Assembly: GCA_031416315.1 (NCBI GenBank)
Contig: JANOTL010000095.1
Span: forward strand, 1-60,166
Length of the DNA: 60,166 nucleotides
From: Pseudomonadota bacterium
GTDB lineage: Bacteria; Bdellovibrionota_B; Oligoflexia; Oligoflexales; CAIYRB01
Reading direction: 5' to 3'
Shown: piece after piece, positions 7,644-60,166 of the stretch
Layout: each line of letters starts with the position of its first letter
Numbering within the stretch: position 1 is the first letter of the stretch
Notes under the pieces: generated by a model
What the model was told of the DNA's origin: nothing
Database searches by the model: none
Seen by the model: the letters and a program-made list of their open reading frames with translations, nothing else
Made by a program: the position numbers and the translations under genes

Positions 7644-8324
7644 ATGAATGCTCCCGCCGCCGTTCGCCTCCTGCCCATCGTCGCAGCCACCGACGAGCCG
7701 ACCTTTCTCATCGAAGCAATGCGGCGTTTTTGCCCGGGAACCGGCCTGGAGTTTGCGGTGCCCGAGGCCGAGGCCCATCTCATCGTCGCCCTGGCGCCCG
7801 AAGGAAACGGAGCGGACGCAGCTCGGCGTCTCGCGCAAACGCTGCGGGAGCGAATGGCGCGCTACGCACTCCCGGCGTTGGTCATACCGCGCCAAGCGAC
7901 GCCTGGCGCGACCGACGAGGAGCTTTCGATTCTTTTAGCCGACGACCTCGAGCGCAATACGTCGGGAACCGTGCGGGCCACGGAGCAGCTCGTGTCGCTG
8001 CTCGGCGCGCGCGTCGAGCTGATGCATCTGCACGTTCGCAAAGCGGTGCGCGGCGGCGCTCGCGAAGCGAAGGCGATTTTGGAGCGACTGGAGCAGCGCG
8101 GCAAGCGCTTGCGCGCGCTCGTCGAGCAACTCGGCGGCGTCTATTTGCCTGAGCTTTGGGAAGGCCGCGTGCGCGAGGAGCTCACGAGAGCAGCCGACAC
8201 GAGCCGCCGGCAGGTCTGCGTTTTCGGACCGCACCGCGCTGTTCACTTGAAACCGCTTGCGTTGGGTAGCATGCCCTACGAAGCGATGCTCAAGATGAAC
8301 GGAGCCGTCCTGTTTACGATGTAG
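7644..8324 (+). CDS. Universal stress protein-like
   Basis: ILLADDL, LMHLHV, VCVFGPHR...LGSMPYEAM; paralogous to neighbouring USPs. Confidence 0.7.
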   Translation: MNAPAAVRLLPIVAATDEPTFLIEAMRRFCPGTGLEFAVPEAEAHLIVALAPEGNGADAARRLAQTLRERMARYALPALVIPRQATPGATDEELSILLADDLERNTSGTVRATEQLVSLLGARVELMHLHVRKAVRGGAREAKAILERLEQRGKRLRALVEQLGGVYLPELWEGRVREELTRAADTSRRQVCVFGPHRAVHLKPLALGSMPYEAMLKMNGAVLFTM

Positions 8325-8419
8325 GTCTACGGCTACAGGTGATGCGCGGCGACTCCAGGACAGAACGAAGGCCACCAGCGTCAAGCTGATGACCTTCGCA
8401 ATGCAGGCAGCTCACGCCG

Positions 8420-8887
8420 TCATGAATGCAACGGGCGTTCCACCGTGCCGGAACCGCTCCGTCTCGCTAGCATTTTCAACCGAGCTTGCTCGAATCGAAT
8501 GACTGCCGCGGCGTCGACGCTATCACTCATCTCCAGCGCCTCCTGCTCCACGCGCGCTGCACGGTAGAGGTCGAGCTCGGCGATGCGACGGACCTTGTGC
8601 GACCGGAGCTTCTCCTTTTGCCGGCGAAGGCGCCGGTCCAATTTGTCGGCCAGGATGTCGATGCAAGAGTACATGTTCTCCGGATCCGCGTGCTCGACGG
8701 TCACGGAGAACCCCGTTCCGCTCACCTGGCATTGCGCGCGGTGATGGTCACCGTCGACGTCGAAGGTCACGTGTGCCACGAGCGGATCGAGGCTGTATTT
8801 ACCGATACGCTCGCCGAGCTTCTTCTCGGCATAGGCGTACAGCGGCAGGGAGCTGTCCATGTGCTTGAAGTAGGCGCGAAATTCCAT
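8420..8887 (-). CDS. hpf: Ribosome hibernation promoting factor (HPF/RaiA family)
   Basis: KHMDSSLPLYAYAEKKL, NMYSCIDILADKLDRRLRRQKEKLRSH. Confidence 0.85.
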   Translation of the reverse strand: MEFRAYFKHMDSSLPLYAYAEKKLGERIGKYSLDPLVAHVTFDVDGDHHRAQCQVSGTGFSVTVEHADPENMYSCIDILADKLDRRLRRQKEKLRSHKVRRIAELDLYRAARVEQEALEMSDSVDAAAVIRFEQARLKMLARRSGSGTVERPLHS

Positions 8888-8904
8888 GGCCCGAACCTCC
8901 GACC

Positions 8905-9879
8905 TTAGTGACAAGGGACGACGGCGACGCAGCGGGGCTGCGACAACATCGTTTTGAAGGGGACTTGTCCGACGTGCACCGTCTCGCGATGGAAGACCCG
9001 ATGCTGTCCGAAGATGACGACGTCCGCGCGGCTGGCGCAGGCGGTGCGCTCGATCTCGTCTGCGACGCGACCGCACACGGCTTCGGCGTGATAGCGGCCG
9101 CCCTTGCTCAAGAGCTCGCGTCGGCGGGATCCGGCGCGCTCGGCGAGCTGCGCCTCGGCGCTCTCGCCGGCGCGGACGATGTCGTCCGGCGTCAGCGGTC
9201 GGCCGTTTCGCGCGCCGCTGCGGGCTCTGGGACCGGTCTCGCCGAAGCTTTCGACGTGGAGATGCGTCAGCTCCGCCTCCCGTACGGAAAGCGCCAGCGC
9301 AAAGGCGAGGTCGAGGGCGCCCGAGGCGACCTCGGAAAAGTCGTCGGCGACGACGACTCGCAAGCCCTTGGAGCGGTAAGGCAGGCTTGCCGCTTCGTTC
9401 AGGACGAAGACCGGCACGCGCGCCTCCATGATCAGGCTCACGGCCGTCGAGAAGCCCAGGGTCGTCTGGGCGCCTCCGCCCCGCCGGGCGCCGATGAGGA
9501 TGAAGCGCGCGCCGGAGCTCTCCGCGTCCTGGGCGAGGCTCCGGGTCACGTCGCCCTCTAGGACCTCCGTCTCGACCTCCTTCAGCTCGCTTGAGAGAGA
9601 GGCTGAGATGCGCTCGAGGCGGCGGGCGGCCGAACGGACCGCTTCCAGCTTGAGTGCCTCCACGAGATCCATCGGACCCTGCTCGACGGCGGTCGCTAGG
9701 AAGCTCTTCGTCCAAGGGTCGCAGACGTGCACGAGCCGCAACGGCGCGCCGCTCATAAGGGCTAGGGCTTCGGCCGCCTTCAAGATCTCCGCCAGGCGGT
9801 CGTCGAGCTGGATGGCGACCAGAATGGGTCCGCTTAGCTGGGTGCCAGGGGTCGGGCGAGGACCTTCTTTGGCGCGCAT
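8905..9879 (-). CDS. Tandem-domain universal stress protein
   Basis: ILVAIQL, LVHVCDPW, VVVADDFS, DVVIFGQHR. Confidence 0.8.
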   Translation of the reverse strand: MRAKEGPRPTPGTQLSGPILVAIQLDDRLAEILKAAEALALMSGAPLRLVHVCDPWTKSFLATAVEQGPMDLVEALKLEAVRSAARRLERISASLSSELKEVETEVLEGDVTRSLAQDAESSGARFILIGARRGGGAQTTLGFSTAVSLIMEARVPVFVLNEAASLPYRSKGLRVVVADDFSEVASGALDLAFALALSVREAELTHLHVESFGETGPRARSGARNGRPLTPDDIVRAGESAEAQLAERAGSRRRELLSKGGRYHAEAVCGRVADEIERTACASRADVVIFGQHRVFHRETVHVGQVPFKTMLSQPRCVAVVPCH

Positions 9880-9928
9880 GCTTCCTCCAGTCTCACGGAA
9901 AACTTTGCCGGTGGCCTTGGTTCTCCGA

Positions 9929-9944
9929 AGCAAGACCGGTGCCA
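9929..9944 (-). promoter_or_regulatory. Putative sigma54 promoter of the USP-hpf operon
   Basis: Minus strand TGGCACCGGTCTTGCT, close to consensus TGGCACG-N4-TTGCW. Confidence 0.7.
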
Positions 9945-9964
9945 GGTTGCGCTACAATGGTCTC

Positions 9965-12019
9965 ATGTCCATCGCCCAGCATCTCATGCGTCTGAAGCCG
10001 TTCGCGGCGGCCGCCGTCGTCGCGCTCGCGCTCGTCGCTTTGCATTACACGTCGCTCGGCGACGCGCTCGACGTCCATGTCTCACAACGTTTTCTGTTCA
10101 ACGTGCGCGGGCGACTAGGGCTCGGACCGGGTCTAGACCCGCGCATCAAGATCTTCGCCTACGACGACGGCACGGTCGCCTCGTTGAAGGCGCTCGACCT
10201 CGAGCTTGGCGACTGGGCGAAGGTCTTCGCGACCCTCGACCGCCAGAAGCCGAACGGGATCTTTCTCGATAAGCTGTTCGACAAACCGTTCGAGGGCTCC
10301 GAGGCGGAGGCCTTCTCAAAGGAGGTGGAAGAGCTCGGGACCCCGATTACCGTAGCAGCCTTCGTGACCCCGCATGCCATTCAGGGGCGCGCGCCCCTGT
10401 CGCTCGAGCGCCCCCGGTACCGCACCGATGAGATCGGCCGCGGGACACCGGACGCACTCGACTTTCTGCCGATTCAAGGCGGCGTCTTCTACGGCGCGGC
10501 GAGCGGAGTCTCGGCCGCTTTCGAGGGCATCGGCCACGCCGTCTATTGGGGCGACGGTCGCGTCGTCGCGCTCTATCGATTGAACGAAGCGCAGGCAGTT
10601 CCGCATTGGGCTTTCTTCGGCGCCAACGAGCTCCATGCCGAAAGCGACGAGCTTTACGCCGACGGCAGGCGCGTCCCTCTCGACGCCGCCGGCCGCGTCC
10701 TCGTCAACATCGACCGCCCTGAGGTCTATGCGAAGCGTGCCTTTGCGATGCTCCCGGTGGTCACGCGCGCGCGCAAGGGCGACGTCGTCCCCATCGTGAA
10801 CGCAGGAGACTACGTCGTCATCCTGCCTGCCATGTACACGGGCAACACGGACTTCAAAGAGACGCCGCACGGCTCGGTGCCTGGCGGCTACATCATGGCC
10901 GCGATGCTGAGCAGCGTGCTCACCGGGAAATGGATCGACATCGCGCCGCATGTTCCGGTGTGGATCCTTCTGCTATCGCTCCTGGGCGGCGTGATCGCCG
11001 CAAGGTTGTCGCCGACCAGGTTCTGGCTCGCCTTGGCTGGGGGCGCAGTCCTCATCGTCGGTGCCGGCGTGGTCGGTTTCGCTCTCCTCTCCTTCTACAT
11101 TCCGTGGCTCCCTTGCACGCTGGGTTTTGGCAGTGCCGCGCTCCTGGTGTTCGCGGACCGCCAACGCGGGTTTCAGCTGGAGCGCGTCCGGATGGAGAAA
11201 GAGCTGGAGACGGCGCGCCTCGTGCAGGACTCGTTCTTTCCCGCCGGCGCGCAAGGGGACGAAGCCCTCGCCGTCGAGGGCTTCTTCCACCCTGCTTCCG
11301 AGTGCGGAGGCGACTGGTGGGGCCACTTCTCCCCGGCGCCCGGCATCGAGTACGTGATGATCGGCGACGCCACCGGCCACGGCGTCTCGGCGGCTTTGGT
11401 GACGGCGATGGCCTTCTCCACCTGCCAGGCCTGGGCGCACGCCCTGCGGGAAGCCGGCGGCACGGAGCACGCGCCAGGGAAGCTCTTGCGGCGCCTCAAT
11501 CAGGTACTCTGCGACACGCGCACGGGTAACGCCACGATGACCTTCTTCGTCGCCGTAATCGACCGCAGCCGGCACGTGATCACCTTCTCGAACGCCGGGC
11601 ACAACTTTCCCTATTTGATCAAGGCGCCGGACGAGTTCGACCAGGAGATGCAAACCTCGATCGACGCCACGGACACCGTAGCCAACCGCCGGCCGCTCAA
11701 GCCGGGCGAGTCGCGCGTGCGCAAGCTCTCCTCGTCGCCCGGGCCGATCCTCGGACTCGAGAAAGGGGGCGAATATCCCGAGGCCTGTATCGCCTTCAAG
11801 CCCGGCGACAAGGTCTTTTTCTTCACGGACGGCCTGATCGAGAACGCGAATGGCCGCGGCGAAGTCTGGGGCTACAGCCTGCAAAAGCGGCTGAAGCGCA
11901 GCGGGAAGCTCGACGCCAAGGCCCTGCGGGATACGATCGAGAAGGAGACGCGCGCGTTCGTGGGCGACACGCCGCCGCGCGACGATACGACGGTCGTCGT
12001 GATCGAAGCGCGGCTGTAG
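9965..12019 (+). CDS. CHASE2 sensor + SpoIIE (PP2C) Ser/Thr phosphatase
   Basis: N-terminal CHASE2-like region (TPHGSVPG), 3 TM segments, ELETARLVQ, CGGDWW, GDATGHG, FFTDGLIE, RDDTT. Confidence 0.85.
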   Translation: MSIAQHLMRLKPFAAAAVVALALVALHYTSLGDALDVHVSQRFLFNVRGRLGLGPGLDPRIKIFAYDDGTVASLKALDLELGDWAKVFATLDRQKPNGIFLDKLFDKPFEGSEAEAFSKEVEELGTPITVAAFVTPHAIQGRAPLSLERPRYRTDEIGRGTPDALDFLPIQGGVFYGAASGVSAAFEGIGHAVYWGDGRVVALYRLNEAQAVPHWAFFGANELHAESDELYADGRRVPLDAAGRVLVNIDRPEVYAKRAFAMLPVVTRARKGDVVPIVNAGDYVVILPAMYTGNTDFKETPHGSVPGGYIMAAMLSSVLTGKWIDIAPHVPVWILLLSLLGGVIAARLSPTRFWLALAGGAVLIVGAGVVGFALLSFYIPWLPCTLGFGSAALLVFADRQRGFQLERVRMEKELETARLVQDSFFPAGAQGDEALAVEGFFHPASECGGDWWGHFSPAPGIEYVMIGDATGHGVSAALVTAMAFSTCQAWAHALREAGGTEHAPGKLLRRLNQVLCDTRTGNATMTFFVAVIDRSRHVITFSNAGHNFPYLIKAPDEFDQEMQTSIDATDTVANRRPLKPGESRVRKLSSSPGPILGLEKGGEYPEACIAFKPGDKVFFFTDGLIENANGRGEVWGYSLQKRLKRSGKLDAKALRDTIEKETRAFVGDTPPRDDTTVVVIEARL

Positions 12020-16205: not shown

Positions 16206-16865
16206 TCAGAAACTCCAGCCGAGATAGAGGCGCAGGAGGTGGGCATTGCTGCCGCCGAGCAGCTCCGCGACGTTCTCTTCTTGACGCTTGCGGTCGGTCT
16301 CGTCGAGACCCTCGGCCTTGCCGGGCGCGAATGAGCTGGTGACCTGGAAAAAGTAGCCGACCCAGTCGCAGCCGAGGGTGAAGCCGTCCCACTGCCACTG
16401 GTTGCCGACGTGCACTTCGGCGCCGATGTTGGTCACGGTACCGTCGAGGCTGGCTTCGTCGAAAATCGAGCCGCCCTCTTTGACGACGCCGTACGTCACG
16501 TCCCAAAGCTCCATGCCGAGGCCGCCATCGACGTAGAACGAGGTGCCGAAGAAATGCTTGAAACGCGTCTCGATCAGGGTCTTCGAGGCCTTGAAGCCAC
16601 CGAGCTCGACATTGCCCGTGCCGATCACGAGGACCGCGGTGTTGTCGTCGGTGGCGAAATACTCGCCGCGGATCCCGGCGGTCGGCATCATGGTAAAGCC
16701 GAAATCGAGCGCCACCGTCACAGACTTGTCCTTACGCTCGTCGGCGCTGGTGCGACCGCGCGATGCCGCGGCCTCGGCCGGCGCGGCTTTCTTCGCCTTC
16801 TTCTTCGGGGCCGCCAAGGCCGGCGGTGCGAAAGCCAGGGCCAGGAGCGCGAGCAGTAGGCGCAC
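16206..16865 (-). CDS. Outer-membrane beta-barrel protein
   Basis: Signal peptide, alternating beta strands, GNQWQW..FTLGCDW, terminal YLGWSF; GTG start inferred. Confidence 0.7.
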   Translation of the reverse strand: MRLLLALLALAFAPPALAAPKKKAKKAAPAEAAASRGRTSADERKDKSVTVALDFGFTMMPTAGIRGEYFATDDNTAVLVIGTGNVELGGFKASKTLIETRFKHFFGTSFYVDGGLGMELWDVTYGVVKEGGSIFDEASLDGTVTNIGAEVHVGNQWQWDGFTLGCDWVGYFFQVTSSFAPGKAEGLDETDRKRQEENVAELLGGSNAHLLRLYLGWSF

Positions 16866-16934
16866 GTGAACTCCGAAAAAAGGTATTCGAGCCTGTTTGT
16901 TATAGAATACGTGAGCTGACGGCGGGAGGAAAGC

Positions 16935-17870
16935 TTGCGCACTCGAAGACGGCGATTTCGGCTCCTGGCCTGCTGGTGCGCCGCCTTCTTCGCGGCGCCT
17001 GCTTGCAACGGCGTTTTCTATCAGCCGCAGCCCCTGGAATTTCTGAACCCGGCCAAGCTCGAGCTGACTTACGAGTCCTTCTTCGAGACCCCGGCGCCCG
17101 GCGTGCGCCTCCACTTCTGGAAGATCGACGCGGCCGCGCCGAAACTCGGCACGGTGCTGCATTTCCACGGCAACGCGCAGAACATGACGGCGCACTTCCT
17201 CTACGTCGCCTGGCTCGCAGCTTACGGCTTCGACGTCGTCACGTTCGATTACCGGGGCTACGGCGCCTCGACCGGCGAGCCCGAGCGCAATGGCCTGATC
17301 GAGGACGCCCGCTTGGCGCTTAAAGTCGCGCAACGTGGAGGGGGAGACCTTTTCGTGGTGGCGCAATCCCTAGGCGGCGCGGTGGCCGTGCCCGCGCTCG
17401 CGACCGAGCCGCCGAAGGCGCTTCGCGCCTTGGCGCTGGACAGCACCTTTGCCTCCTACCGCAGCATCGCGCGGGAAAAGCTGGGCTCGAGCTGGGTCAC
17501 CTGGCTCCTGCAGTGGCCGGCCTCGTTTCTTGTCACCGACGACTGGAGCCCGATCGACTCGGCGGCGAAGATCACCGTGCCGCTGGTCCTCATGCACGAT
17601 CCCGGCGACCCGGTCGTGCCCTTCGGGCAGGGGCAGAGGCTTTTCGCCGCGCTCGGCTCTTCGGCGAAGGAGCTCTGGGAGGTCCCTGGCGGCGGGCATA
17701 CGGGGGCGCTCGCGGACGACGCGCGCCAGGCCGGAGATTTCCGAGACCGGCTGGCGGCGTTTTTCTGCGGCGAGCTTTCCGACTCGAGTAAAAGGGCGGC
17801 CTGCGATGCGCGGCGCGTTGCGGTGACGCGGGCCTACACTAATAGAGCCGCGCCCGCTCCTCGGCGATAG
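16935..17870 (+). CDS. Alpha/beta hydrolase, probable lipoprotein
   Basis: HFHGNA, FDYRGYG, AQSLGG nucleophile elbow, D..VP, GGH. Confidence 0.9.
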   Translation: MRTRRRRFRLLACWCAAFFAAPACNGVFYQPQPLEFLNPAKLELTYESFFETPAPGVRLHFWKIDAAAPKLGTVLHFHGNAQNMTAHFLYVAWLAAYGFDVVTFDYRGYGASTGEPERNGLIEDARLALKVAQRGGGDLFVVAQSLGGAVAVPALATEPPKALRALALDSTFASYRSIAREKLGSSWVTWLLQWPASFLVTDDWSPIDSAAKITVPLVLMHDPGDPVVPFGQGQRLFAALGSSAKELWEVPGGGHTGALADDARQAGDFRDRLAAFFCGELSDSSKRAACDARRVAVTRAYTNRAAPAPRR

Positions 17871-19458
17871 CCGGACTTTCCAGGTACTCGTCGTAGGTCA
17901 TCGATTTGTCCATCAGCCCCTTCGGCGTGAGCTCGATGATGCGCGTCGCGATGGTGTTGATGAACTCTCGGTCCTGCGACGTGAAGAGGAGCGTGCCCTT
18001 GTACTGGATCAGGCCCTCGTTCAAGGCGGTGATCGACTCTAGGTCCAAGTGGTTCGTCGGCTCGTCCATGATCATGACGTTGGCCTTCGACATCATCATG
18101 CGCGCCAGCATGCAGCGAACTTTCTCGCCGCCGGAAAGGACGCGGGCCCTTTTCGCGGCCTCCTCGCCGCTGAAGAGCATCTTGCCCAAGAAGCCGCGCA
18201 CGTACTCCTCGTCGCGCTCGGCGTCGGTGCGGGCGTAGTTGCGGAGCCAGTCGATCAGGTTCTTGTCGGTGTCGAAGAAGGCCGAGTTCTCTTTCGGGAA
18301 CGAGGCGCGCGAGGTCGTAACGCCCCAGCGGAACGTGCCGGACTTGGGCTCCACTTCCCCCTGAAGGATCTTGAAGAGGAGCGTCGCCGAGAGCCCGTCC
18401 TTGCCGACGAAGGCGACTTTCTCGCCCTTCGTGATCGTCAGGTCCAAGTTCTTGAAGTGGATCTTGCCGTCTTCCTCGCCCGAGAGCTGCTTCGTTTCGA
18501 GCAGGTCCTTCCCCGCCTCGCGCTCCTCCGTGAAAAAGATGTGCGGGTATTTGCGCGACGACGGCTTGATCTGCTCGAAGTCGAGCTTCGCCAGCATCTT
18601 TTTGCGGCCCGTCGCCTGCTTCGACTTCGAGGCGTTGGCGGAGAAGCGCATGATGAAGTCCTTGAGCTCCTTCGCCTTGTCCTCCGCTTTCTTGTTCTTG
18701 TCCTGCCGCTGCTTCAGCGCGAGCTGGCTCGACTGGTACCAGAAGCTATAATTGCCGGTATAGAGCGTGATCTTGCTGAAGTCGATGTCGGCGACGTGCG
18801 TGCAGACCTTATCCAGGAAGTGGCGGTCGTGGCTGACGACAACCACGGTGTTCTTGAACTCGCAAAGGAACTCTTCGAGCCACATGATCGACTGGAGGTC
18901 GAGGTTGTTGGTCGGCTCGTCGAGGAGGAGGATGTCGGGATTGCCGAAGAGCGCCTGGGCAACGAGGACCTTGACCTTCTGGCCGGCCTCGAGCTCCTTC
19001 ATCTTCATCTTGTGGACGTTCTCGCCGACGCCGAGCGCGGAGAGCATGACCGCGGCCTGAGCCTCGGCGTCCCAGCCGTTCAGCTCACCGAAGCGGCTCT
19101 CGAGCTCGGAGGCGCGGATCCCGTCCTCGTCGGAGAAGTCGGGCTTAGCGTAGAGGGCGTCCTTCTCGACCATGATGTCGTAGAGCAGGCGGTTGCCCAT
19201 GATCACGGTGTTGAGGACCTCGACCTCGTCGAACTCGAACTGGTTCTGACGCAGAAAGGCCAGGCGCTGGCCCGGCTGGATGAAGACTTCCCCGTGGTCC
19301 GCCGCGAGCTCGCCGGAGAGGATCTTCAAAAAGGTCGACTTGCCCGTGCCGTTCGCCCCGATGAGACCGTAGCAGTTTCCCGGGAGGAACTTGATGTCGA
19401 CGTCTTGGAAGAGCTTGCGCTGGCCGAAGGCCAGACTAACGCCAGTAGTTGCAATCAT
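17839..19458 (-). CDS. ABC-F family ATPase (YbiT/YkpA-like)
   Basis: Two ABC domains (GANGTGKS, LLDEPTNNLD, LSGGE, MDEPTNHLD), no TM segments. Confidence 0.92.
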   Translation of the reverse strand: MIATTGVSLAFGQRKLFQDVDIKFLPGNCYGLIGANGTGKSTFLKILSGELAADHGEVFIQPGQRLAFLRQNQFEFDEVEVLNTVIMGNRLLYDIMVEKDALYAKPDFSDEDGIRASELESRFGELNGWDAEAQAAVMLSALGVGENVHKMKMKELEAGQKVKVLVAQALFGNPDILLLDEPTNNLDLQSIMWLEEFLCEFKNTVVVVSHDRHFLDKVCTHVADIDFSKITLYTGNYSFWYQSSQLALKQRQDKNKKAEDKAKELKDFIMRFSANASKSKQATGRKKMLAKLDFEQIKPSSRKYPHIFFTEEREAGKDLLETKQLSGEEDGKIHFKNLDLTITKGEKVAFVGKDGLSATLLFKILQGEVEPKSGTFRWGVTTSRASFPKENSAFFDTDKNLIDWLRNYARTDAERDEEYVRGFLGKMLFSGEEAAKRARVLSGGEKVRCMLARMMMSKANVMIMDEPTNHLDLESITALNEGLIQYKGTLLFTSQDREFINTIATRIIELTPKGLMDKSMTYDEYLESPAIAEERARLY

Positions 19459-26461: not shown

Positions 26462-26484
26462 TGGCGGAAGGGGAGGGAATCGAA
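26462..26484 (-). repeat. att-like copy of the tRNA-Sec 3' end (distal boundary)
   Basis: TGGCGGAAGGGGAGGGAATCGAA identical to 44581-44603. Confidence 0.9.
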
Positions 26485-39925: not shown

Positions 39926-39946
39926 TGGCGGAAGGGGAGGGAATCG
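39926..39946 (-). repeat. att-like copy of the tRNA-Sec 3' end (boundary between islands)
   Basis: TGGCGGAAGGGGAGGGAATCG identical to 44581-44601. Confidence 0.9.
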
Positions 39947-43337: not shown

Positions 43338-44552
43338 ATGGCAGTAACGAAGCGAACCCGAAAAACCAAGGGCCGCACGAAGACCATTTTTCATGCAGAG
43401 ATTTACGTACGCGGCGTCCGCATCGCGGACAAGACATTCGAGACGGCAGCATCGGCCCATACGTGGCATGATCAGGAAAAGCGGCGGTGGGAGTCCGGCC
43501 AAATTTCAGTTGGCCCGGACGCCGAGGACATGACCTTTCGCGATTGTCTCAATGGGTATCTTGAAGAGGCGTTCACCCGGCTCAAGAAGTCGTCCCAGCA
43601 GTCGAAGGCGACGCGGCTCGTCTCTCTGAACGAGTCGCCCGTGATGAACGTCAGGATGCGAGATCTCGGCCCGATGGTGATCGACCAGTGGCTCAGTTGG
43701 CTTCATAGGCATCCGACGAAGACGAACCCCGGCCGGAAGACTTTTCTTCTTGAGCTGGAGCTTCTGACGACGATCTTGACCTGGTACCGGAACGAGCGCG
43801 ACCCGATGTTCGTCGTGCCGATCGTCAAACGGCACCGGGAGCGGTGTCACTACAAGCAGGTCCAGGCGCGACGACCGGACTACTTCATCAAGGCCTCGGA
43901 CGTGCAGCGGTGGATCAACTGGCTCCGCCGGCAGCGGCGAAACCCGGTCTACTATCGACTCGCGACGTTCATGGTCTTGACGGGTGCCAGGGTCAGTGAA
44001 GCCTGCGGGCTCTGCTGGGACTCCGTGGAACTTGAAAGCGCGATGGCTCGGATCGTCCGGAGCGTTAGTTGGGACCACTGGACCAGAGAGCCCACGCTGG
44101 AATTCAGCACGAAGACCGAGGAGTCTGTTCGGATCGTGCCGCTCTCGACTGATATCGTCGATCAACTTGCGCTGATGCGGCAGGGTTCGGCTGGCTCCGG
44201 TCCTGTCTTTCAGGACCGAAATGGCGAGCTGCTTCGGTACAACGCGATCCAGTCGGCCTTCAACGCCGGCTTCAAGGCTCTTGGGCTGCCGTGGCGGTCG
44301 ACGCACATTTGTCGGCACACGTTCGGGACCCTGGCTCTCGTCGCGACGCGGGATCTGGGGGCGGTGCAGGCAAGCTTGGGGCACAGAAGTCGGGCGATGA
44401 CGGAACGGTATGCGAAGACTGTCGCGCTGCTGTCGACTGATACGGCTGAGAAGACGGCGCAGCTCATTCGGCTCTCGGCACCGGATCACGTACAGAATCA
44501 CGTTCTGGAGGTTGAGGCTGAAAGCAGGTCGAGAGTAGAGAGTCGAAATTAG
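43338..44552 (+). CDS. Tyrosine recombinase/integrase
   Basis: TGARVSE (R), K, HICRH (HxxR), LGH, ERY (Y); adjacent to the tRNA 3' end. Confidence 0.92.
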   Translation: MAVTKRTRKTKGRTKTIFHAEIYVRGVRIADKTFETAASAHTWHDQEKRRWESGQISVGPDAEDMTFRDCLNGYLEEAFTRLKKSSQQSKATRLVSLNESPVMNVRMRDLGPMVIDQWLSWLHRHPTKTNPGRKTFLLELELLTTILTWYRNERDPMFVVPIVKRHRERCHYKQVQARRPDYFIKASDVQRWINWLRRQRRNPVYYRLATFMVLTGARVSEACGLCWDSVELESAMARIVRSVSWDHWTREPTLEFSTKTEESVRIVPLSTDIVDQLALMRQGSAGSGPVFQDRNGELLRYNAIQSAFNAGFKALGLPWRSTHICRHTFGTLALVATRDLGAVQASLGHRSRAMTERYAKTVALLSTDTAEKTAQLIRLSAPDHVQNHVLEVEAESRSRVESRN

Positions 44553-44580: not shown

Positions 44581-44677
44581 TGGCGGAAGGGGAGGGAATC
44601 GAACCCACCTCAGACGGCATAACCGCCCGACAACGGCTTTGAAGGCCGTGGAGGCCACCAGTGCCCCATCCTCTTCC
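44581..44677 (-). tRNA. selC: tRNA-Sec (anticodon UCA)
   Basis: GGAAGAGGATGGGGCACTGGTGGCCTCCACGGCCTTCAAAGCCGTTGTCGGGCGGTTATGCCGTCTGAGGTGGGTTCGATTCCCTCCCCTTCCGCCA: 97 nt, CTTCAAA loop, long variable arm, G discriminator, next to selB. Confidence 0.93.
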
Positions 44678-44744: not shown

Positions 44745-46940
44745 ATGCACGTCATCGGTACCGCTGGGCACGTCGACCACGGCAAGACGAGTCTGCTCCG
44801 CGCCCTCACGGGCATGGAGCCGAGCCGGCTGGCGGAGGAGCGGTCGCGTGGGATGACGATGCAGTTGGGGTTCGTCTGGATGACGGGGCCCGAAGGCCGG
44901 CCGATCGGCATCGTCGACGTCCCGGGGCACGCCGACTACCGCCTGCATACGATCACGGGCGCCAGCACGATCGACGCGTTCGTCTTCATCTGCGCGTGCG
45001 ACGACGGGTGGATGCCGCAGAGCGAGGAGCACCTTTGGGCGCTGGCCGCCTACGGCATCACGCACGGCGTCGTCGTTCTCACGAAGACCGACCTCGTCGA
45101 CGCGAAGCGCTTCGCCGAGGTGAAGGCGGAGCTCGAAGTCCGATTCTACGAGGCCCTAGGCCGCGAGGTGCCGATCGTCGGCTTCTCCGCGAAGACCAAC
45201 GCGGGCCTCGAGGATCTGAAACGCGAGCTCTTCCGCGAGCTGGGCGAGCTGCCGGCGGAGAAGGACGTCGGATGCCCGCAGATGTTCGTGGACCGCGTGT
45301 TCACCGTCGCGGGCCAGGGCACGGTCGTAACCGGCACCTTGCGCGACGGGAAGCTGCACGAGCGTCAGATGATCGAGGTCCTGCCCTCTGGGAAAAAGGC
45401 CGAGATCCGCTCGATCCAGTCTTACGGCAAGCAGGTGAAGACGGCGCACCCGAGCGCGCGCGTCGCCCTCCAGCTGGCGAACCTCAGCCTCGCCGACGTC
45501 CCGAAGGACTCCCAGATCGTCGATCCGGCGCAGCTCTTCCTGACGCAGGCCGTCGACCTCCGCCTGCGGCTCTACTTAGACTACGCGATCAACCCCAAGA
45601 AAAATCCGGAAGTGATCCTCGTCCACGGCGGCGTGAAGACCAAGGGCAAGCTGATCGCCATCGCGCCGCTGGAGAACGTCGCCGCGCCCGCGTGGCACGT
45701 GCGTTTGAAGCTCGACGTCTCTCGCTTGATTCGCTTCGACGAGCATTGCCTGGTCGTCAGCTCCGGCGGCGACAAGGTGCTGGGCGCCGGGCGCGTCATC
45801 GACGAGCTGCCGACGACGAGCGTCACCGTCGCCGCGAGTCTCCTGGCGCTGGTGGACCACTTCACCGTCCACGAGTACTTGATGCTGAACCTCTTGAAGG
45901 ACGGGGCCTTCCGCAGCCGCGACCTGATGCGGCGGACGCGCTTCGCCAAGCTGGAGGTGATGCCGGACGGCGTCGAGGTCCTCGACAAATGGATCGTCGA
46001 TCGCCGTCGCGTCGACGAGTGGCTCGACGCGATCCTGGCCCTCGTCGCGAAACATCACACCGTCGTGCCGACGGACGAGGGCATCGCCGAGACCGCCTTA
46101 CAAAAGGCGATGCGCCTCGACGTCGACCTTCTCCGCACCTTGCTGCGCGAGCTGAAGCGGGAGGGCCGGCTGCAGCAGGTCGGCCCTTACCTCAAAATCT
46201 TCGGCTACGTGCCGAAGGCCGACCGAACGATGGAGCTGACGGCGACTTTGGAGACCTTGGCAGCGTCGACGGAGACGGTCGCACCCTCGCTCCTCGACCT
46301 CGAGGTGAACTCCGACGACAAGCGCCGGATCGTGGCGCGCTTCGTCGCCGACGCCAAGCTCGTCCGCCTGGGCCAGGACCACCTCGTCAGCACCCTGGTG
46401 TTCCAGGCGATGACGCGTCGCGTCGTCGAGTACCTCGGCAGCCACGCCGAGGCGACCGCAGCCGACCTCCGCGACGCGCTGAAGCTCGGCCGCAAGCTCG
46501 TGGTCCTCGTCCTGGAGGCGATGGATCACGCGAAGATCACGGAGCGAAAGGGCGAGGGCAGAGTTCTCACCGCCGCGCACCGGGCGGCGCCGGCGCAAGC
46601 CTTCGAGAGCCGAATCCGCGAGATCGCCAATAGCGACGTCCCCGAGCTCCTTTCGCATGCCGACCTGAGCGTCGACACGCCGGAAAAGGCGCAGGTCCTG
46701 ACGAAGCTCGTCGAGGACGGGATCATGGTCCAGCTCGACGAGAAGATGCTGATGACGGCGCCGGCGTTCGCCGCGGTGAGCCAGCGCATCCTCGACGTTT
46801 TCGAGCGCCGCGGACCCCTGGCAGCCGGCGAGGTGCGCGACGAGCTCCAGATCGGGCGCAAGATCGTCGTCTTCGTCATGGAGGCGATGGACCGCCAGGG
46901 CATCACCGTCCGCGACGGCGAGCGGCGCGGCGTCAAATAA
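44745..46940 (+). CDS. selB: Selenocysteine-specific elongation factor with duplicated C-terminal winged-helix module
   Basis: TAGHVDHGKT, EERSRGMT, DVPGH, TKTD, VDRVFTVAGQGTVVTGT; two copies of RD.L..GRK.V...EAMD...IT.R.G..R. Confidence 0.9.
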   Translation: MHVIGTAGHVDHGKTSLLRALTGMEPSRLAEERSRGMTMQLGFVWMTGPEGRPIGIVDVPGHADYRLHTITGASTIDAFVFICACDDGWMPQSEEHLWALAAYGITHGVVVLTKTDLVDAKRFAEVKAELEVRFYEALGREVPIVGFSAKTNAGLEDLKRELFRELGELPAEKDVGCPQMFVDRVFTVAGQGTVVTGTLRDGKLHERQMIEVLPSGKKAEIRSIQSYGKQVKTAHPSARVALQLANLSLADVPKDSQIVDPAQLFLTQAVDLRLRLYLDYAINPKKNPEVILVHGGVKTKGKLIAIAPLENVAAPAWHVRLKLDVSRLIRFDEHCLVVSSGGDKVLGAGRVIDELPTTSVTVAASLLALVDHFTVHEYLMLNLLKDGAFRSRDLMRRTRFAKLEVMPDGVEVLDKWIVDRRRVDEWLDAILALVAKHHTVVPTDEGIAETALQKAMRLDVDLLRTLLRELKREGRLQQVGPYLKIFGYVPKADRTMELTATLETLAASTETVAPSLLDLEVNSDDKRRIVARFVADAKLVRLGQDHLVSTLVFQAMTRRVVEYLGSHAEATAADLRDALKLGRKLVVLVLEAMDHAKITERKGEGRVLTAAHRAAPAQAFESRIREIANSDVPELLSHADLSVDTPEKAQVLTKLVEDGIMVQLDEKMLMTAPAFAAVSQRILDVFERRGPLAAGEVRDELQIGRKIVVFVMEAMDRQGITVRDGERRGVK

Positions 46941-46960
46941 AGACGTCGAGACGTGGAATA

Positions 46961-46998
46961 GAAAAAGGGTGGTCCATTAGACCACCCTTTTCTTTTTG
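46961..46998. terminator. Bidirectional intrinsic terminator
   Basis: AAAAGGGTGGTC-CATTA-GACCACCCTTTT hairpin with A/T tracts on both sides, between convergent genes. Confidence 0.85.
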
Positions 46999-47087
46999 CC
47001 CTGCGCGACGCGCAAGGTACGGCACAGTCGGTTTGCGAGTTCGGAAGCTAAGTCACGCTTCGTCTATCCGTCTCGTTTGAGTGGCGC

Positions 47088-48755
47088 TTAACCTCAATAA
47101 CTTCCGGCTCAAGCGCTTCCAGGTCCTCAAACACCGCCTGCGAATCAGGATCCCTGATTAGGGGATCACATGCTGTTGCCAGGGCCTCAAACACCGTTAC
47201 TGTTGATGGTGCCCTGCTCTGCCGCCTGCTGCTGCTGTTGTTGCTTCTGCTGCTGCTGCGAAGGTTGCACCTTCTGCGGAGCTTTAGGAGCGTTCTTGAT
47301 CATGTTGGCGAGCATGGCAAAGATACTGCCACCCGCTGCTGCCATTGCCGGAGCCGCCGCGACCGAGCCGGCTGCGCGCGTCGCCGGCGCCTGGGCTTGC
47401 GACTGTGCTGCTGTGCTCAAGAAATCCCCGAACAAGTTGTCTTCGGCCAGGCCGAGACCTTCCTTGCTCTTGAGATACTTCTTCAGCGGGCTCTGCTGCG
47501 CGATCGTCGTTGTGAGCGCGCGAATCTCTTGCTCGGTCGCTGCCACCATGCCGTACGTCCGCGGAAAGAAATCCTGGACGATCGCCAGAGTGTTCTGCGC
47601 CGAACGCAAGAACTCGTCACGATCTGCTTCGCCTGCCTTGACGCGGGCTACGACGTCTTTCGACGGATAGTCGCCCCAAGGATGGCACTTCATGCTGTCG
47701 AAGAACTCCGCGAAGACGTAGTCGTTGAACCGAACCCTACGCACGATCTTTTGCTCGAGCGTCGGGGGTTGCGTCTCGCCTTTCTGCATGTAGGACACGC
47801 CTGCGAGCAGGTCCTCGTCCCTGAACTTCGGGTCCCCCGGCGGGACGCCTTCGAAGTTCTCTGCGATCGCCTTGGAGACGTCGCCGCGCTTCTTCAGCTT
47901 CTCGTAGTTCTTGCGGATCTGATCGGCGGCACCCGCGCCCAGCCAGGTCTCCATGGTCTTGAGATCGAAGATTTTACTCTCGATCATGTCGACCAGGAAG
48001 TTCTGCGCGACTTGGATCTTCAAGTTGGCGATCTTGAAGTTCTCGTCGTCGCCGAGCGTGAGGACGTGACCCTTGGCCTTCTCTGCTTCCGGAGCTTCGT
48101 TCATGCGAGCGAAGAGCTGGGCGAACAGGAAGCCGAACGAGCGCACCATGGCATGCCGAATCTCGATTGCGTCCGGTACGACGTTGATTCGCATGATCGA
48201 GCCGCCCTTCGGGGAGCCGTCCTCGTTGACGGTGTCCTTGCGGGTGAGCTTCAGATCGGCCAGCTCGGCATCCGTCAGCTTGTCCAAGCGGAGGAATTGG
48301 AAGCACGCCGTGATGTACTGAATCTCTTGCTCGGTCGATTTCTGCTTGTCGTCCTCGCGGAATTTCCGCGCGCAACGATCTTTGGTCTTGGGAGTCACGT
48401 CGATGAACCCGCCCAAGGACATGTATGCGACCTGCATCTCCGGCGATATCGCCGTGAGCGCTTCGCGCACCTCCGCTTTCAACTTATCCCTCGTCTCCGA
48501 CCCTTCGATGCTCGGATCGATCTTGATGCGATCGTCCGTTGCCGAGAACATCGGCTCGCTAAATTCGGGGCTCTGCTTGACCTCGGGGCTCGCCGAACAG
48601 CTGTTCGTGCGCACCTTGGTTCCAGCAGCGAAGTTATCGAGCGTCTTGACCTCGCTTTTTTGCGCCCCTGCGGGCGGCTTGCATCCAAAGATCGTGGCGA
48701 GCGGCATACATAACAACAAAGCAGTCATGCTTCGTTGTCGCCACGTCCACGACAT
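47088..48755 (-). CDS. Lipoprotein with putative six-selenocysteine C-terminal tail (ends at 47187 if TGA is read as stop)
   Basis: Lipobox IFGC-KPPAGAQKSEVK; Ala/Gln-rich linker; in-frame TGA at 47189, 47168, 47147, 47129, 47111, 47096, then TAA at 47090-47088. Confidence 0.75.
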
Positions 48756-49068
48756 ACGTTTCGTCCTCCTCTCGCTGAATGTTGGGGATATCAGGGATCT
48801 ATAACGATTCTGACATATCCGTATCGGCGTAGGCGGTCGAAACCTTAAGTCGGAAAATTGTCGCAATCCTCGCGATATCAAGGGTGATTTCGTGGTGTTT
48901 GGCCAAAAACTCAAGAAGGCCGCCACGGCGGCCGGGCGCGGCTGCGCTCACTCCGTCGCGTTTGCCGCGACCTTTTCCGTGGATTTCAACATGGCCCGGA
49001 TCCGCTCGATGTGGACCTCGGCCTCCTCCGCACGTGCCCCCGCGCTCGGCGAAAAGCCTCTGGAGTTC

Positions 49069-59785: not shown

Positions 59786-60166
59786 ATGAGTCAGAAGCTT
59801 TTCCGAGTCCTGTCGGCGCTCGTGTTCTTGTTCAACGTCAACTTCGCGGCTAGCGCGTATGGCGCATCGACGAAACACGCGCATCACGATCATGCCCAGG
59901 CCGATGCCGCGCACGCGGATTCCGACGCCACGAACGCGCAAGCCGATGCGGCGCACGCGCATGGCGACGACGGCACGTGTCCCGAAGATGGCTGTTGTTG
60001 TTGTTGTGAAGACGGCACCTGTCCGGCGGACGGCTGCTGCGGTGAAGGCGGCTGCTGCGGTGAAGGCGGCTGCTGCGGTGAAGGCGGCTGCTGCGGTGAA
60101 GGCGGCTGCTGCGGTGAAGGCGGCTGCTGCGGTGAAGGCGGCTGCTGCGGTGAAGGCGGCTGCTGC
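59786..60166 (+). CDS. Secreted His-rich/Cys-rich metallothionein-like protein (3' end outside the window)
   Basis: GGAGG RBS; MSQKLFRVLSALVFLFNVNFAASAYGASTKHAHHDHAQADAAHADSDATNAQADAAHAHGDDGTCPEDGCCCCCEDGTCPAD(GCCGEG)n. Confidence 0.75.
   Translation, partial: MSQKLFRVLSALVFLFNVNFAASAYGASTKHAHHDHAQADAAHADSDATNAQADAAHAHGDDGTCPEDGCCCCCEDGTCPADGCCGEGGCCGEGGCCGEGGCCGEGGCCGEGGCCGEGGCCGEGGCC
60032..60166 (+). repeat. 18-bp perfect tandem repeat encoding GCCGEG
   Basis: GGCTGCTGCGGTGAAGGC x7.5, continuing to the window end. Confidence 0.95.

Follow-up and report, generated by a model that had tools for sequence, protein, structure and literature searches.

A SelB with a duplicated SECIS-binding head beside a putative six-selenocysteine tail gene and a distal hairpin in the order Oligoflexales

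The stretch of DNA analysed here (the window; 60,166 nucleotides) is contig C95 of a genome of the order Oligoflexales, G000, which measures 6.36 Mb, has 65% GC and is 93% complete. By its lipoproteins the lineage resembles Oligoflexia. The window contains selB, a tRNA-Sec gene (selC) and, on the minus strand at 48755-47088 and convergent with selB, a neighbour gene whose reading frame ends in a tail with six in-frame TGA codons. Two hairpins lie between the convergent genes. Coordinates are collected in Table 1, together with those of related genes outside the window.

Table 1. Features of the selB locus, with the paralog in the same genome and the candidate selenoprotein genes of genome G017
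Feature	Location	Strand or contig	Description
selC, tRNA-Sec	44581..44676	-	anticodon UCA; divergent from selB; sole UCA tRNA that ARAGORN finds in the genome
selB	44745..46940	+	731 aa; two WH3-WH4 units after EF-Tu-like domains 1-3 and WH1-WH2
First WH3-WH4 unit	46227..46568	+	ancestral position; GRKL at 46488; about residues 495-608
Second (duplicated) WH3-WH4 unit	46587..46937	+	GRKI at 46854; about residues 615-731
Terminator-like hairpin	46963..46991	.	lies between the two genes; conserved downstream of the G001 ortholog
Putative SECIS	46999..47017	-	in the 3' UTR; stem of 7 bp, 5-nt CGU-NN loop; the six UGAs lie 83-176 nt upstream
Tail with six in-frame UGA (putative Sec)	47088..47189	-	33 codons, G/S/P/N-rich, TAA end; full product 555 aa
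Neighbour gene to first UGA	47190..48755	-	putative lipoprotein, 522 aa; folded core at about residues 35-430 plus disordered linker
Paralog (L190)	G000:C121, ~16493-18005		two probable Sec and a TGA stop
G017 clients	L138:2696-3715, L226, L236, L304	contigs C101, C351, C863, C154	U-G-[G/R]-stop end; CGU-loop hairpin at 19-21 nt

The tRNA-Sec scored 63 bits against a gathering threshold of 47. With selC, both selA and selD were found in G000, the latter two away from the selB locus. SelD (L019; contig C79, approximately 8224-10578) forms the C-terminal part of a 784-aa fusion and has Cys, not Sec, at its active motif; its fusion partner looks like an FAD-dependent oxidoreductase. No classical selenoprotein was recognised in G000 at its 93% completeness, as the matches to molybdopterin (3) and AhpC-TSA (21) families and SelD were without internal stops and Rdx was unmatched. 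Two read-through scans of the genome, in which 120 of 122 and 90 of 94 candidates were inspected by eye, likewise gave no convincing Sec client. A tyrosine integrase (43338-44552) ends beside the 3' end of tRNA-Sec, and 14-mers of this end recur at two upstream sites (about 39942-39946 and 26478-26482), suggesting that elements may have inserted at selC. An 18-bp tandem repeat occupies 60043-60153 at the contig end and is also present on contig C76.

An earlier note on this DNA, made from the letters alone, had proposed that SelB carries a tandemly duplicated SECIS-binding module, with an HMM scan and structure prediction as checks. The window SelB is a full-length match to TIGR00475 (269.9 bits, cut-off 242.25), its EF-Tu-like G domain and domain 2 were matched by PF00009 and PF03144, and its best matches by fold comparison were 4zu9 and 5lzb. 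PF09107, the WH4 family, matched twice in the same frame: 46428-46568 scored 50.2 bits and 46800-46928 scored 47.6 bits, both above the cut-off of 23.2 bits. Identity between the two modules is 36% over 96 aa (E 3e-20), and AlphaFold folded both WH3-WH4 units (block pLDDT 72-89), with their relative placement undefined (pTM 0.32). The head duplication is real. The unit is larger than the note had drawn it, however, since the repeat is the entire WH3+WH4 pair of about 115 residues; each unit aligns to the Moorella WH3-WH4 chains 1lva/1wsu and to the SECIS-binding fragment of E. coli SelB. GRKL and GRKI were located as the note had said, at the SRKY position of the solved structure. With six winged helices, rather than the four with one WH3-WH4 unit expected of a bacterial SelB, the protein is a variant. 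An assembly artefact or repeat as the source of the duplication was rejected: it is unlikely because blastn of the module DNA gave, among the matches listed, 7-mers only, a Logan contig from run X1 (possibly the source sample) covers 44871-48900 with 0 differences, and the same architecture occurs in a second genome, G001.

Of 95 genomes from the order, four contained SelB, and a clade profile run over 131 genomes of the phylum recovered the same four; a fifth genome with SelB (G095) was placed outside the clade. Two of the four clade SelBs in these 131 genomes had the double head, namely those of G000 and G001, which belong to the same genus and whose SelBs are about 65% identical. The SelB of G017 has one WH3-WH4 unit. 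That of G016 (L139, G016:C272:2465-3931) is only 488 aa long and joins domains 1-3 directly to WH3-WH4, without WH1-WH2; the SelB arm in the clade has 2, 4 or 6 winged helices. The database relatives P0002, P0005 and P0006 are single-head SelBs, and the first of these, known as a protein only, is 62% identical to the window SelB.

The sequence GR[KR][LIVF] was found in all clade SelBs, including the single-head proteins P0002, P0005, P0006 and those of G016 and G017, whereas outside SelBs mostly have SRKY. As the motif occurs in single-head SelBs, the change predates the duplication, and it fails as the sign of altered specificity in the duplicated heads that the earlier note had seen in it. 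Both heads of G000 and G001 retain it, together with the terminal Arg. In a tree built from 18 modules, both copies fell within the GRK clade (support 100/99), and their order was left open.

A genome scan with the SelB alignment gave outside SelBs only, and these were used as controls. After removal of 7 truncated or broken loci from 79, none of the 72 intact outside SelBs had two units. In a control phylum, 171 of 186 SelB-positive genomes gave a single WH4 match. One of the other 15 had WH4 matches on different contigs; 12 had extra matches, but an additional unit would not fit into their best-match frames of 637-679 aa; and the remaining two, also with extra matches, were assigned to neither group. 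A metagenome scan with SelB returned no relative. The duplication is apparently a rare variant among the SelB sequences compared.

The core of the neighbour protein gave a confident predicted fold (pTM 0.77) and no family match in Pfam or NCBIfam. From the N-terminal hydrophobic stretch and Cys we infer a lipoprotein. Weak, non-significant fold likeness was seen to zincin-type domains, for example anthrax lethal factor and PPEP-2 (best E 1.6e-3, TM 0.24); the HExxH motif is absent from the protein and is seen in some distant paralogs. The in-frame TGAs begin at 47187, 47166, 47145, 47127, 47109 and 47094 (minus strand), with the TAA at 47088, and are spaced by 21, 21, 18, 18 and 15 nt, so that the multi-TGA gene described earlier, with codons 15-21 nt apart, is genuine. 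The G001 ortholog is 39% identical, and its tail also has six in-frame TGAs, among them two adjacent pairs, and one Cys. UGA positions match only partly between the two tails, and the G001 tail gene is on a different contig from selB. The double head was found only in these two genomes with six-UGA tails, the co-occurrence for which the earlier note had proposed a phylogenetic profile. Both genomes being of one genus, duplication and tails probably count as one event.

Several observations around the tail were set aside. A plus-strand poly-Cys ORF at 47170-47670 was dismissed as the antisense shadow of a poly-Q linker, and the spaced-TGA pattern proved uninformative. RNA contigs of run X2 matched parts of the neighbour gene with about 92% similarity, a small share that is not evidence of expression, and none lay over the tail. 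The window at 47100-47189 and the L009 tail fold local hairpins that bury some UGAs in stems; these could slow access of the release factor, or be due to chance.

TGA is the commonest stop codon in G000 (2759 of 4589), and the +1 frame is open in both tails. Both facts suit a reading in which translation really ends at the first UGA, what follows is either a non-coding or decayed relic of a Cys tail, with TGY turned to TGA, or a small overlapping ORF in +1, and the duplication in SelB is unrelated. We consider this decidedly improbable. TGA counts per frame were 6/0/0 in the window tail and 6/0/1 in that of G001, with no TAA or TAG in frame in either, though the proteins are only about 39% identical; the peptides of the two +1 frames have no clear likeness to each other. 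The conserved hairpin described below acts like a SECIS in G017, and the machinery in G000 would be without use, as the limited scans of this genome gave no other Sec client. At least five further in-frame TGAs within 45 codons followed 3 of the 2759 TGA-ended genes, with the neighbour just below this filter. Genome-wide reassignment of TGA was rejected by the stop usage and by comparison of read-through segments.

Relatives of the neighbour protein were found in 29 of 95 genomes of the order; 26 homolog loci could be read to their ends and 3 further ones ran off their contigs. Tails of 7-14 Cys were present in 8 of the 26, all in genomes without a SelB match, and 21 of 119 database homologs had at least five Cys in their last 60 residues. 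When TGA read-through segments were scored for Cys-tail-like composition, the window tail ranked first of 3467 (18.5, next 6.3), and the G001 tail scored 11.1; the tail of the paralog on contig C121 ranked only 76th of 3467. Exchange of Cys and Sec was seen at the level of whole tails, which are of low complexity, and at one matched site, between the C121 paralog and the G017 gene on contig C101. G016 (67% complete) has SelB, yet a Cys tail. These comparisons are consistent with read-through of the tail as Sec, which we regard as very probable. Its UGAs might instead be read as Cys, Ser or Trp through an altered tRNA or a relaxed SelB, and the divergent SelB and the Cys of homolog tails would fit such decoding; however, the sole UCA tRNA is the well-scoring tRNA-Sec, SelA and SelD are present, and homolog tails are not Trp-rich (at most two Trp in the last 80 residues at all 26 loci), which makes this hardly credible.

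Scanned against Pfam and NCBIfam, the Cys-tailed homologs gave no match to metallothionein or any other family. We nevertheless take their tails to resemble metallothionein, being G/S/N-rich with closely spaced Cys. Unlike metallothionein, the tail is fused to a folded lipoprotein core, and in the window the Cys are replaced by UGA. A metagenome scan with the neighbour family gave 7 loci, among them a single likely UGA-tailed member, L130, which is cut off at the contig end, and a search of the ESM Atlas gave no match at 0.9 or above. L130 and the database proteins P0013 and P0018 end in a Gly-rich linker where the window UGA tail begins, and all three are likely to be further UGA-tailed members.

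A hairpin with a 7-bp stem and a CGU-NN loop was found downstream of all three UGA-tailed genes: the window neighbour, its G001 ortholog and the C121 paralog. Stem and loop agree with the bacterial SECIS consensus in PMC13188914. The distance from the UGA does not, as the loop lies 176, 155, 134, 116, 98 and 83 nt from the window UGAs and 201 to 126 nt from those of G001, outside the bacterial range of 16-37 nt; the G017 genes (19-21 nt) and the second UGA of the C121 paralog fall within it. The hairpin reaches just outside 47000-47190, the stretch proposed earlier for a binding test. In G000 the strict hairpin core followed 2 of 3485 TGA-ended ORFs, the window neighbour and the C121 paralog, a count that is circular in that the motif was drawn from G000 and G001 genes, and the loose form followed 73 of 4284. 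Among six hairpins, 4 of 7 pairs had changed on both sides and 0 of 500 shuffles reached the covariation score; with six related sequences and a structure read off them, this covariation is suggestive only. The 3' regions folded no better than shuffles (z -0.1 to -1.2).

The core was found behind none of 12 Cys-tail homologs, and a looser GU-loop hairpin behind 3 of the 12. An RNA model (R1) trained on the six hairpins was run on 8 genomes, with up to 150 candidates scored per genome; beyond the training hairpins, 16 matches were inspected, none of them behind a convincing UGA tail. In G021, a genome without a SelB match, a Cys-tailed homolog (L029) has a 6-bp CGU-loop hairpin about 115 nt past its stop, a possible relic.

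The earlier note had supposed that the two heads could bind two hairpins, or a non-canonical or distal SECIS. Its second option fared well, as one SECIS-like hairpin is kept distal to the UGAs in the orthologs. Binding of two 3'-UTR hairpins, comparable to the two SECIS of selenoprotein P, would draw on another hairpin that G001 has immediately behind the stop codon, with 8 bp and an A-GU-UU loop, and on a CGU-GA sequence 36 nt beyond the last UGA in G000. This proximal element is strong in G001, but the predicted fold in G000 lacks the loop, the two elements are not conserved in sequence, and the C121 paralog has one such hairpin only. The orthologs thus have a single hairpin in common, and we think the two-hairpin arrangement improbable. 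Probably one distal hairpin serves the tail. The note had also described the system as dedicated to the neighbouring gene. That gene is indeed multi-UGA, but the C121 paralog has the same hairpin and a two-UGA tail, and in G001 the genes are on different contigs.

G017 belongs to another family and has a single-head SelB. The hairpin core defined from G000 and G001 matched this genome 20 times, and in 3 of the 20 the stem was longer by at least three pairs; all three were located 21, 21 and 19 nt after a UGA that is followed by two codons and a stop. A fourth gene, retrieved with another search pattern, carries this loop at 21 nt on a different stem. As the hairpin stands 19-21 nt after the lone C-terminal UGA of four genes, it behaves as the SECIS of this lineage. 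The four genes, of which that on C863 is the weakest case, encode at least three unrelated protein types, and may share a portable C-terminal Sec tag that matches no known family. Three have a Cys at an upstream site. One encodes a redoxin-like domain and, like the window neighbour, lies convergent with selB. Over 95 genomes, the G017-end pattern matched three G017 sites and one G094 site, and the reversed control also gave 1 match. No client was found among 22 pattern matches in G016 (67% complete).

The three UGAs of the C121 paralog are 48, 21 and 12 nt from the loop. This gene ends in U-GPPSGGGG-U-FP-TGA, with the third TGA in the stop position, and the G017 gene on C101 ends in C-GPSSGGG-U-GG-stop; in both, the loop follows the second of these sites by 21 nt, and this site and the stop position coincide exactly in the two genes. 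The first TGA of the paralog, at 48 nt, stands at the Cys of the G017 gene, and read-through there must precede the well-spaced UGA. From this comparison, the double-head genus has UGAs beyond 16-37 nt, whereas the four single-head clients stay inside. On these sequence comparisons we strongly infer that the hairpin would be a SECIS and the UGAs Sec codons, and that the window gene would encode a 555-aa lipoprotein with a Sec6 tail.

We assign a probability of roughly 0.58 to a lineage-specific selenocysteine system in which clients would carry Sec in C-terminal tails and the extended SelB would aid one distal SECIS. A Sec near the C-terminus would first have placed the SECIS outside the reading frame, and upstream Cys codons would then have converted to UGA. 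A hairpin past the stop codon would never be unwound by the ribosome, so that SelB could remain on it, or rebind, while the mRNA loops, and UGAs 83-176 nt away could be served. The extra WH3-WH4 unit would most likely make the arm longer and more flexible beyond a hinge, or add avidity: one head may hold the hairpin during reloading of the factor, and the extended tether may let one hairpin serve each UGA in turn. As may hold for the Cys tails of homologs, the tail would probably bind metal or act as a store of redox equivalents or selenium; this is the weakest step.

Alternatively, a genuine poly-Sec tail is decoded from a distal SECIS, but the long range is a trait of the whole GRK-type clade of SelB, or comes from the hairpin escaping unwinding, with the duplication incidental or a matter of efficiency only. 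Such a role would agree with the occurrence of both the GRK motif and the CGU-loop hairpin throughout the clade, with an arm whose length varies readily there, as the G016 SelB without WH1-WH2 illustrates, and with the confinement of the duplication to one genus. P0013 and P0018, from organisms with no assigned SelB type, may carry UGA tails; if a multi-UGA tail were present beside a single-head SelB of the P0002 type, for which these two are candidates, the duplication would not be needed. Against this, all four G017 clients, served by a single-head SelB, have a lone UGA at 19-21 nt, three of them with the Cys upstream, and both heads have kept their GRK motif and terminal Arg in two species whose SelBs have diverged to about 65% identity. 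We therefore consider an incidental duplication unlikely, and prefer a SelB whose extended arm would contribute to reading from the distal hairpin.

[quoted passage not shown] Selenoprotein P and archaeal 3'-UTR decoding resemble the putative system in that several UGAs are served from the 3' UTR, for selenoprotein P with a Sec-rich C-terminal tail; they differ from its bacterial-type short hairpin and direct-binding SelB, and no sequence relation is expected. PMC10778597 gives selenoprotein P two SECIS and 10 Sec. In a 2026 review (PMC13188914), bacterial SECIS lie 16-37 nt after the UGA, with some predicted elements outside the model, and 119 prokaryotic selenoprotein families are counted, a few with 2-3 Sec at most. 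PMC4605307 describes SelB as having four winged helices, with WH3-WH4 binding the SECIS and a hinge between WH2 and WH3. PMC10778597, PMC8659212, PMC13326102, PMC13640652 and bioRxiv 10.1101/2025.02.04.636165 restate the bacterial rule or describe engineering, and in the last of these SECIS-independent SelB variants are the engineers' present route towards multi-Sec proteins. Our literature search found no duplicated-head SelB, six-Sec bacterial protein or long-range bacterial SECIS; supplements and tables such as BSepDB could hold entries.

Like canonical SelB from E. coli, Moorella and Aquifex (TIGR00475, PF09107), the window protein combines EF-Tu-like domains with winged helices, but it has six of these instead of four and GRK[LI] instead of SRKY. 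The hairpin resembles a canonical bacterial SECIS, being short, with a G near the start of the loop, of the kind bound by WH3-WH4, and with a spacing of about 20 nt in G017 and at the second C121 UGA; unlike that element, it would act 48-201 nt from the UGA, compared with 16-37 nt in PMC13188914 and PMC4605307. The nearest bacterial parallel is SaoC, for which bioRxiv 10.1101/2022.07.06.499078 reports a SECIS past the stop at normal spacing. Its C-terminal Sec likewise puts the SECIS in the 3' UTR, and the G017 clients are of that type. As far as described there, however, SaoC has one Sec at normal spacing, whereas the window gene has six UGAs and a distal hairpin.

Such tails would escape screens that demand a local SECIS or rely on alignment to known selenoproteins. 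The SelB-hairpin pair, if it acts as proposed, would make Sec insertion independent of constraints on the coding sequence and would be a natural tool for multi-Sec proteins. Six Sec in one tail, with adjacent pairs in G001, would be twice the highest prokaryotic count listed. The lineage offers a graded natural series, of SelBs with 2, 4 or 6 winged helices and clients with 1, 2 or 6 UGAs, in which the distance rule is directly testable. If true, six UGAs with one distal hairpin would break the bacterial 16-37 nt rule, and there would be a simple route between the two modes of decoding: a C-terminal Sec moves the hairpin out of frame, and the SelB arm then lengthens. Our judgement is evenly balanced as to whether eukaryote-like Sec decoding evolved independently in this bacterial lineage through duplication of the SelB head, by which a local hairpin would have become a long-range 3'-UTR element and each tail would have come to hold six Sec.
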